Below, one piece after another: positions 41,936-42,980 of a stretch of 42,980 nt of DNA. How positions within the stretch are numbered: position 1 is the stretch's first letter; each line of letters opens with the position of its first letter. Location: the IMG/VR virus record IMGVR_UViG_2923355181_000001; one strand, 5' to 3'. A program made the position numbers and the translations under genes. Source of the DNA: a virus (Duplodnaviria; Heunggongvirae; Uroviricota; Caudoviricetes). Under the pieces are notes generated by a model. The model did no database searches. It worked only from the letters and a program-made list of their open reading frames with translations, and was not told the DNA's origin.

Positions 41936-42980
41936 ATGAGTGATTACGTAAATACTGGCGTGGAGGCGTGGAAACCTAATTTTTATATATCTGCTGATAA
42001 TAAAAACATCACGGATAAAATAAGAAAAGGTTTGATCAATATCACGCTGACAGATTACGGCGGCTCCAGTAAACAGACAGACGAACTCCGCGTAGCAATA
42101 GTTTCTGAAACTCTGAAAATTCCGGCCCGCGGAGTAAAAATCAGTATTGGGCTCGGTTTCGGTAATCAGATAATTGATAAAGGGATATACATCGTTGACG
42201 GTGCTAGCAGTGGCGGTGAACCCCGGGTAGTTGATTTCACAGCAAAAGCGGCTCCGATGAACGCAGCAAAAGGATCTCCGACAGTTCAGAGCAAAAAGAC
42301 TCGTTCCTGGAGCGACGTCACTGTCAGCGATATCGTTGCGACAATAGCGAGCGATAATGGGCTAAAACCACGCGTATCAAAGCGGTTTGCAGACAATGTT
42401 ATCACGCAACTCGATCAGGTCGGCGAGTCAGATATGCACCTGATGTCGCGGCTCGCAACGAGATTCGATGCGGTGAGTAAACCCGCGGGCGGGTACTGGA
42501 TATTCCTGCCGCGCGGCGCGGGCGAATCTGTTAGCGGTGCTCCGCTCCAGCACTACACGCTAACTCGTCGTGATAACTCCAGCTGGGGCTATTCGAGAAA
42601 TGGACAAAGTGGCGATAGTGGTAGCGGTGGCGAAAATCCGGAACCGACGTATCTGATTAAATATCACGACACAGCAACTGGGCAGATCAAAGAATTGCGG
42701 ACAAGGTAGTGGCGGCGATCCTGTCATTGAATGGCCGGCAGTTGAGCCGTCGCTCGACGCAGCGAAAGAAGCTGCACCAGGGCTCAAGGGCGGTGCAGCT
42801 AAAAAAGAGTTCTCTATGACGTACACGACGCCAGCGACGCTCGATTTAGTGTCGCTGACAGCAGAATGCAAAGTCACAACTCAAGGTTTCGGGACCGAGG
42901 AGGACCGGGACTGGACTATCAACACACTGAGTCTGACGCTCGCTGAAAACGGTTTTTCGGTTCGGCTGTCTCTGGAGTAA
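41936..42980 (+). pseudogene. tail protein gpD-like, disrupted by a frameshift near 42657-42709
   Basis: Track ORF 41936-42709 ends RTR*; a second frame is open from 42657 to the TAA at 42978-42980 and encodes a plausible continuation (…GSGGDPVIEWPAVEPSLDAA...LSLTLAENGFSVRLSLE*). Confidence 0.7.

Follow-up and report, generated by a model that had tools for sequence, protein, structure and literature searches.

Gene D of the prophage described here is a pseudogene of the baseplate-hub family. The window, that is the whole stretch of 42,980 nucleotides that was analysed, is a prophage lying between pgsA and yecA in an Escherichia coli chromosome of the ST131-H30 type, where it has integrated at leuZ, a tRNA-Leu(UAA) gene. 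A single additional A in gene D, which ends with the window, introduces a stop codon after residue 257 of a protein of 347 residues. We consider it very probable, taking the account as a whole, that this A was inserted before the emergence of H30, that it has been inherited vertically since then, and that it leaves a truncated hub with which most likely no tails would be built.

The lesion in gene D

Read directly from the window, the gpD-like ORF runs from the ATG at 41936 to the TAG at 42707-42709 and encodes 257 aa, ending in ...TGQIKELRTR. The +1 frame is shut by a TGA at 42654-42656 and contains no further stop from 42657 until the TAA at 42978-42980, encoding ...GQGSGGDPVIEWPAVEPSLDAAKEAAPGLKG...LSLE; the two frames overlap at 42657-42709, and this TAA, which is the native stop codon of gene D, is the last codon of the window. 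A sequence-only reading of the same DNA had described both frames, with coordinates that proved exact, and had proposed that the second is a plausible continuation of the first and that removing one base near ACAAGG (42701-42706 in the window) would restore an ORF of about 347 aa. The base was located by alignment with ON470604 (vB_EcoM-720R5), which is one base shorter and is annotated with a single 1,044-nt gene, 'tail formation protein D'. The window has AA at 42703-42704, compared with a single A in the intact allele: the latter reads CGG ACA GGT AGT GGC (R T G S G), and the window CGG ACA AGG TAG (R T R stop). When the surplus A is removed a 347-aa ORF is restored, and relatives carry this ORF intact. 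The features of the locus are as follows.

41936..42709, + strand: truncated gpD-like baseplate-hub ORF, 257 aa (residues 1-256 native, residue 257 Arg for Gly, then stop)
42703..42704, + strand: 1-bp insertion, AA for A (alignment with ON470604; difference lists against SaT040 and 720R5)
42707..42709, + strand: premature TAG resulting from the frameshift (direct reading)
42705..42980, + strand: stranded 3' remainder of gene D, read in the +1 frame; codes for residues 257-347 of the intact protein and ends with the native TAA at 42978-42980
42816..42980, + strand: 54-aa ATG ORF within the stranded part (ON470596 CDS URC09426.1; phrog_7984)

Four GenBank 'phage' records match the window from 41700 to 42980. 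Three of them are 100% identical to it, and the fourth is ON470604, for which the gene D base is the sole difference in the matched stretch. The lists of differences between the window and SaT040 or 720R5 likewise contain the 1-bp gene D indel. None of these GenBank 'phages' is an isolated virion; they were predicted with PHASTER in Illumina assemblies of clinical isolates from the UK (depositing preprint).

The intact protein was used as the query against a collection of 5.8 billion proteins, which gave 102 matches. With identities ranging from 97% to 26%, the relatives are each a single protein of about 325-440 aa; among the 102 matches this does not hold for a few entries that are marked as partial or truncated by short contigs, or for the cluster of the 257-aa allele itself (P0009). 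Homologues ending naturally at the first stop, which the sequence-only reading had named as the observation that would speak against a frameshift, were thus not encountered, the same allele excepted. The same reading had suggested aligning both halves with gpD homologues: when both window fragments were aligned with 28 full-length homologues, they abutted exactly, with no gap and no overlap, ...KELRT being directly followed by GSGGDPV. In this alignment, the stranded part holds five near-invariant columns (A276, G317, F318, W326 and G339), and the downstream frame shares 97% identity with the C-terminal end of a full-length homologue. Both halves also match the same PHROGs family, phrog_52 ('tail protein'), at collinear profile positions, 186-417 for the upstream ORF (E 1.9e-74) and 425-512 for the downstream frame (E 1.3e-13), which bears out the proposal that the second frame continues the first. 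Since the homologues are single ORFs, the two fragments abut and both lie on one PHROG profile, these comparisons show the intact form of gene D to be the ancestral one.

The gene D product as a baseplate hub

The window has the canonical gene order of a contractile tail (sheath, tube, chaperone, tape measure, gpU, gpX, gpD), and gene D occupies the position of a hub gene, after the tape measure and with gpU (PF06995, E 3e-31) and gpX (PF05489, E 2e-15) directly upstream. Against PF05954 (Phage_GPD), the intact form scored 23.8 bits and the truncated form 22.4, under the gathering cut-off of 30.1, and the alignment was confined to profile positions 79-139; homologues of the intact protein list PF05954 in a precomputed table. 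An NCBIfam search of the gene D product gave no match above cut-off. A PDB sequence search matched the R2 pyocin hub (6u5h_C, E 2e-22) at residues 13-222.

An AlphaFold (AF2) model of the intact form was made on P0001, a full-length relative that is 97% identical, and not on the truncated product; it is a confident model (pLDDT 84.8, pTM 0.80) and has a full-length hub fold. Foldseek matched it to the hubs of R2 pyocin (6u5h_A), P1 (9vzk_1), MuSo2 (3cdd), Mu (gp44, 1wru and 9ki1_G) and T4 (gp27, 1k28_D), with a probability of 1.00, about 350-380 aligned columns, E values of 1e-14 to 1e-20 and TM scores of 0.6-0.74, and also to the gp27-like part of VgrG and of eCIS spikes. Because the PF05954 score is under the cut-off even when the protein is intact, the assignment rests on fold, PHROG match and synteny, by which the gene D product is identified as a contractile-tail baseplate hub. 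Compared with the hub proteins (P2 gpD, Mu gp44, R2 pyocin, P1, T4 gp27 and the N-terminal part of VgrG), the intact form has the same fold over its full length, the same place as the last gene of the tail operon, behind gpU and gpX, and 347 aa as against 325-390; its identity to the P2-type gpD of E. coli and Salmonella is only about 41-43%. In contrast with these hubs, the window copy ends at residue 257: a single polypeptide of 325-440 aa with its C-terminal domain is encoded in the 69 genomes that carry the intact allele (see below), and not by the window ORF.

Hubs of the gp27, gp44 and gpD type assemble as ring-shaped trimers that hold the spike and act as a template for the tube. By likeness to them, gene D would encode the trimeric baseplate hub where spike, tube and sheath assemble. 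In the AlphaFold model, the stop after residue 257 sits between the paired strands 251-257 and 260-265, and the truncation takes away the long helix 273-289 and about five strands, which together form a compact C-terminal part of the conserved fold. The residues lost are the last 90, near-invariant positions included, as translation would read Arg-stop in place of Gly257-Ser258. From this structure and from the conservation of the lost part, we infer that a product without its C-terminal portion is most likely non-functional; the truncated hub would most likely be unable to complete its fold or its ring, and tail assembly most likely lost, leaving a prophage without tails. Myovirus particles were seen after induction of a carrier strain, Eco_569, which has several other myovirus-type prophages; the electron microscopy (TEM) and host-range experiments of that study were performed on mixed lysates of poly-lysogens and are therefore uninformative for this prophage (preprint behind ON4705xx-ON4706xx).

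It could be argued that the split gene is functional, the 257-aa protein acting alone, or together with the 54-aa ORF, or in a new role such as poisoning the baseplates of superinfecting phages. The allele does persist in a very successful lineage, and the 54-aa ORF has its own ATG and matches, over 54 of 54 positions (E 4e-41), a PHROG family of 'unknown function' made of just that piece, phrog_7984. However, a short or split form is found in no natural homologue, the truncation point interrupts a beta-hairpin within a compact domain, and residues between 258 and 293 are absent from both pieces. Selection need not be invoked to explain a few decades of clonal persistence, since elsewhere the prophage has changed by only about 5 SNPs, and the late operon would not be expected to be expressed in lysogens. 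The PHROG family is explained by gene callers annotating the stranded ORF: public records present this ORF as a separate 'hypothetical protein / Gene D protein' (URC09426.1 in ON470596), and phrog_7984 appears to contain nothing but the C-terminus stranded by the gene D frameshift. The 54-aa ORF owes its annotation to the frameshift and is not a gene of its own, and a functional split of gene D is very improbable.

A full-length hub could also be made, and the prophage stay functional, by a leaky or programmed +1 ribosomal frameshift, in which ribosomes would pause at AGG-UAG and slip (AGG to GGU). The product would then read ...ELRTR-SGGDPV..., with the junction peptide ...ELRTR/SGGDPVIEWPAVEPSLDAAK. 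Rare AGG codons and A-site stop codons both promote +1 shifts in E. coli (prfB CUU UGA; tandem AGG). The insertion creates ACA AGG UAG, where a stop comes straight after a sense codon; among the Arg codons of the phage late genes AGG is the least used (8 of 4130 codons), and three copies of the hub suffice per virion. The site is thus similar to the +1 frameshift site of prfB (RF2) in having a sense codon, then an in-frame stop, and a continuation in the +1 frame; it differs from prfB in lacking a CUU-type slippery codon, a Shine-Dalgarno stimulator upstream and any conservation among homologues, and the resemblance is coincidental. The split is kept in no diverged homologue, and the intact allele differs by this base alone. 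Re-pairing would be poor for tRNA-Arg(CCU) on GGU as well as for tRNA-Thr on CAA. No Shine-Dalgarno-like element was found in the 15 nt upstream (AAAGAATTGCGGACA), and downstream RNA structure was no better than that of shuffled sequence (z = -1.0), which leaves the site with neither of these stimulators. In summary, neither a conserved two-frame layout nor a shift-prone codon with a stimulator was found, and recoding at this site is very improbable. It is similarly hard to credit that low-level spontaneous +1 slippage yields enough full-length gpD (with Arg for Gly257) to make the H30 prophage weakly productive; if it did, the world's most common multidrug-resistant E. coli clone would carry a leaky, not a dead, prophage.

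Distribution of the two alleles in E. coli

A 61-mer centred on the lesion and the reciprocal 60-mer of the intact allele were searched in 5,426 complete E. coli genomes. The locus was present in 432 of them, and the counts were complementary: 363 genomes carry the exact frameshift allele and 69 the exact intact allele, the lineage having been checked for a handful of named strains. Frameshift carriers among the matches listed include EC958 and several strains labelled O25b:H4-ST131. Gene D is truncated in EC958 (H30Rx) and in CD306 (H30S), and intact in the non-H30 ST131 strains SaT040, G749 and ZH063. The first two of these three are of fimH type H22 and ZH063 is of type H35 (Table 1 in PMC4933990). 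Over 42.2 kb, the window differs from EC958 by one SNP and one indel, plus the insertion sequence described below, and from SaT040 by five SNPs and two indels, one of which is the gene D base; it is identical to CD306 across the 20 kb compared.

The sequence-only reading had left two options for the extra base, an inactivating lesion or a sequencing or assembly error. An error, that is an A absent from the real DNA, could be suspected in that single-base indels are the commonest type of assembly error and one of the four near-identical phage records is devoid of the extra A. Nevertheless, the site is AA versus A, with no homopolymer run, and the same allele is present in 363 complete genomes obtained in many laboratories and on many platforms, as well as in three Illumina-based records. 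It is carried by two independent EC958-type assemblies of the PacBio era and by Illumina/SPAdes assemblies, and in the strains checked it sorts by lineage and not by technology, H30 strains being frameshifted and non-H30 ST131 strains intact. An assembly error is excluded by this recurrence over laboratories and platforms together with the phylogenetic partition, and we give it practically no credence. On the genomes compared, the 1-bp insertion is clonally inherited and not an assembly artefact, and of the two options it is the lesion that stood, inactivation being predicted from structure and conservation.

The history that we propose for this insertion, as the simplest one, is as follows. 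The prophage would already have been in place when the H22/H35 and H30 lineages diverged, and ST131 would have gained the A in a single event that predates the last ancestor shared by the H30 strains examined (H30S and H30Rx). The frameshift allele would then have been inherited vertically and have risen with the H30 clone, a spread for which we infer neutral hitch-hiking. An insertion that arose before the H30 ancestor and was inherited vertically would be found, as it is, in most sequenced carriers of this prophage. In the source strain, the spike gene V has additionally been split by IS1. The H30 and the non-H30 ST131 strains examined are told apart by the single-base insertion in gene D, which might serve as a lineage marker.

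The truncated product is identical to WP_001296153.1, a 'hypothetical protein' in EC958 and CD306. PGAP/RefSeq labels truncated gene D as an ordinary 'hypothetical protein', with no pseudogene call, and in the study behind the GenBank records the region was rated an 'intact' prophage by PHASTER. A prophage of ST131-H30 scored as 'intact' carries a truncated essential tail gene, and should probably be treated as defective. In this very well sequenced lineage the frameshift allele is already in hundreds of public records, where it is poorly annotated, and the value of the observation is mainly one of annotation and bookkeeping.

Two side observations were made in these comparisons. The second indel of SaT040 is a missing G in the tape-measure gene (5362-7001 of the SaT040 locus, equivalent to window position 40241), and this gene is annotated as two CDS by RefSeq; it is either an independent tail lesion or a PacBio-era assembly error. 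An A/G SNP in the chaperone gene, at window position 39327, is A in the window, EC958 and CD306, and G in SaT040 and 720R5; it co-segregates with the frameshift in this small sample.

The prophage and its IS1 insertion

Genes for tRNA-Gly, tRNA-Cys and tRNA-Leu(UAA) lie at 152-453, and the integrase gene comes next. A 125-bp direct repeat (398-522), presumably attL, overlaps the 3' end of the tRNA-Leu gene. The partner of this repeat in EC958 is located 807-931 bp past the position of the window end, after a gene for a 139-aa hypothetical protein and just before yecA. Since the repeat recurs beyond the window end, the true right end of the prophage (attR) is outside the window, about 0.9 kb further on. 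Compared with the leuZ-yecA prophage of EC958, with which it shares the gene D frameshift, the window ends about 0.9 kb short of attR and alone has an IS1 element in gene V. We found no mention of the number of the leuZ prophage among Phi1-Phi7 of EC958, or of the gene D frameshift, in PMC4134206, PMC4659465 and PMC4850260.

The window is 777 bp longer than EC958 within the baseplate/spike gene V, and the insert found there is as follows.

32514-33281 (32505-33290 with flanks): IS1 in gene V, 768 bp, ORFs of 91 and 167 aa

We take this insert to be IS1, as recognised by its end sequences. It measures 768 bp, has terminal inverted repeats and the insA and insB ORFs, and is flanked on both sides by a 9-bp target duplication, ACTGCTGCG. 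A match to PF04717 persists in the N-terminal piece of gene V. The sequence-only reading had counted the gene D frameshift as a second lesion in the tail module, and this agrees with the interruption of gene V at 32514-33281. IS1 is not present at this site of gene V in EC958, CD306 or SaT040, and the junction between IS1 and gene V was found in none of the 5,426 complete E. coli genomes; the IS1 insertion is therefore peculiar to the source strain, itself absent from this collection, and younger than the gene D frameshift.

As in cryptic or defective prophages, for example those of E. coli K-12, point frameshifts and insertion sequences build up in structural genes of a prophage that is passed on vertically. 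Unlike in those prophages, decay of the window is at a very early stage, as all modules appear intact apart from gene D and, in the source strain, the IS1 insertion, and copies are more than 99.98% identical across ST131 clades. The lesions of this prophage are ordinary prophage decay and reveal no new biology.

The late region (23363-42980) is a mosaic of lambda-like head genes (gpA-type terminase, gpW, portal, S49 protease, decoration protein, capsid and FI) and of a P2/Mu-like contractile tail module. Within this region, at window 39091-39500, the tail assembly chaperone ORF ends at 39372, and the -1 frame has no stop between 39333 and about 39500. This overlap, in which GTA AAG is found, looks like the usual programmed -1 frameshift of gpE/E', for which it is a candidate.
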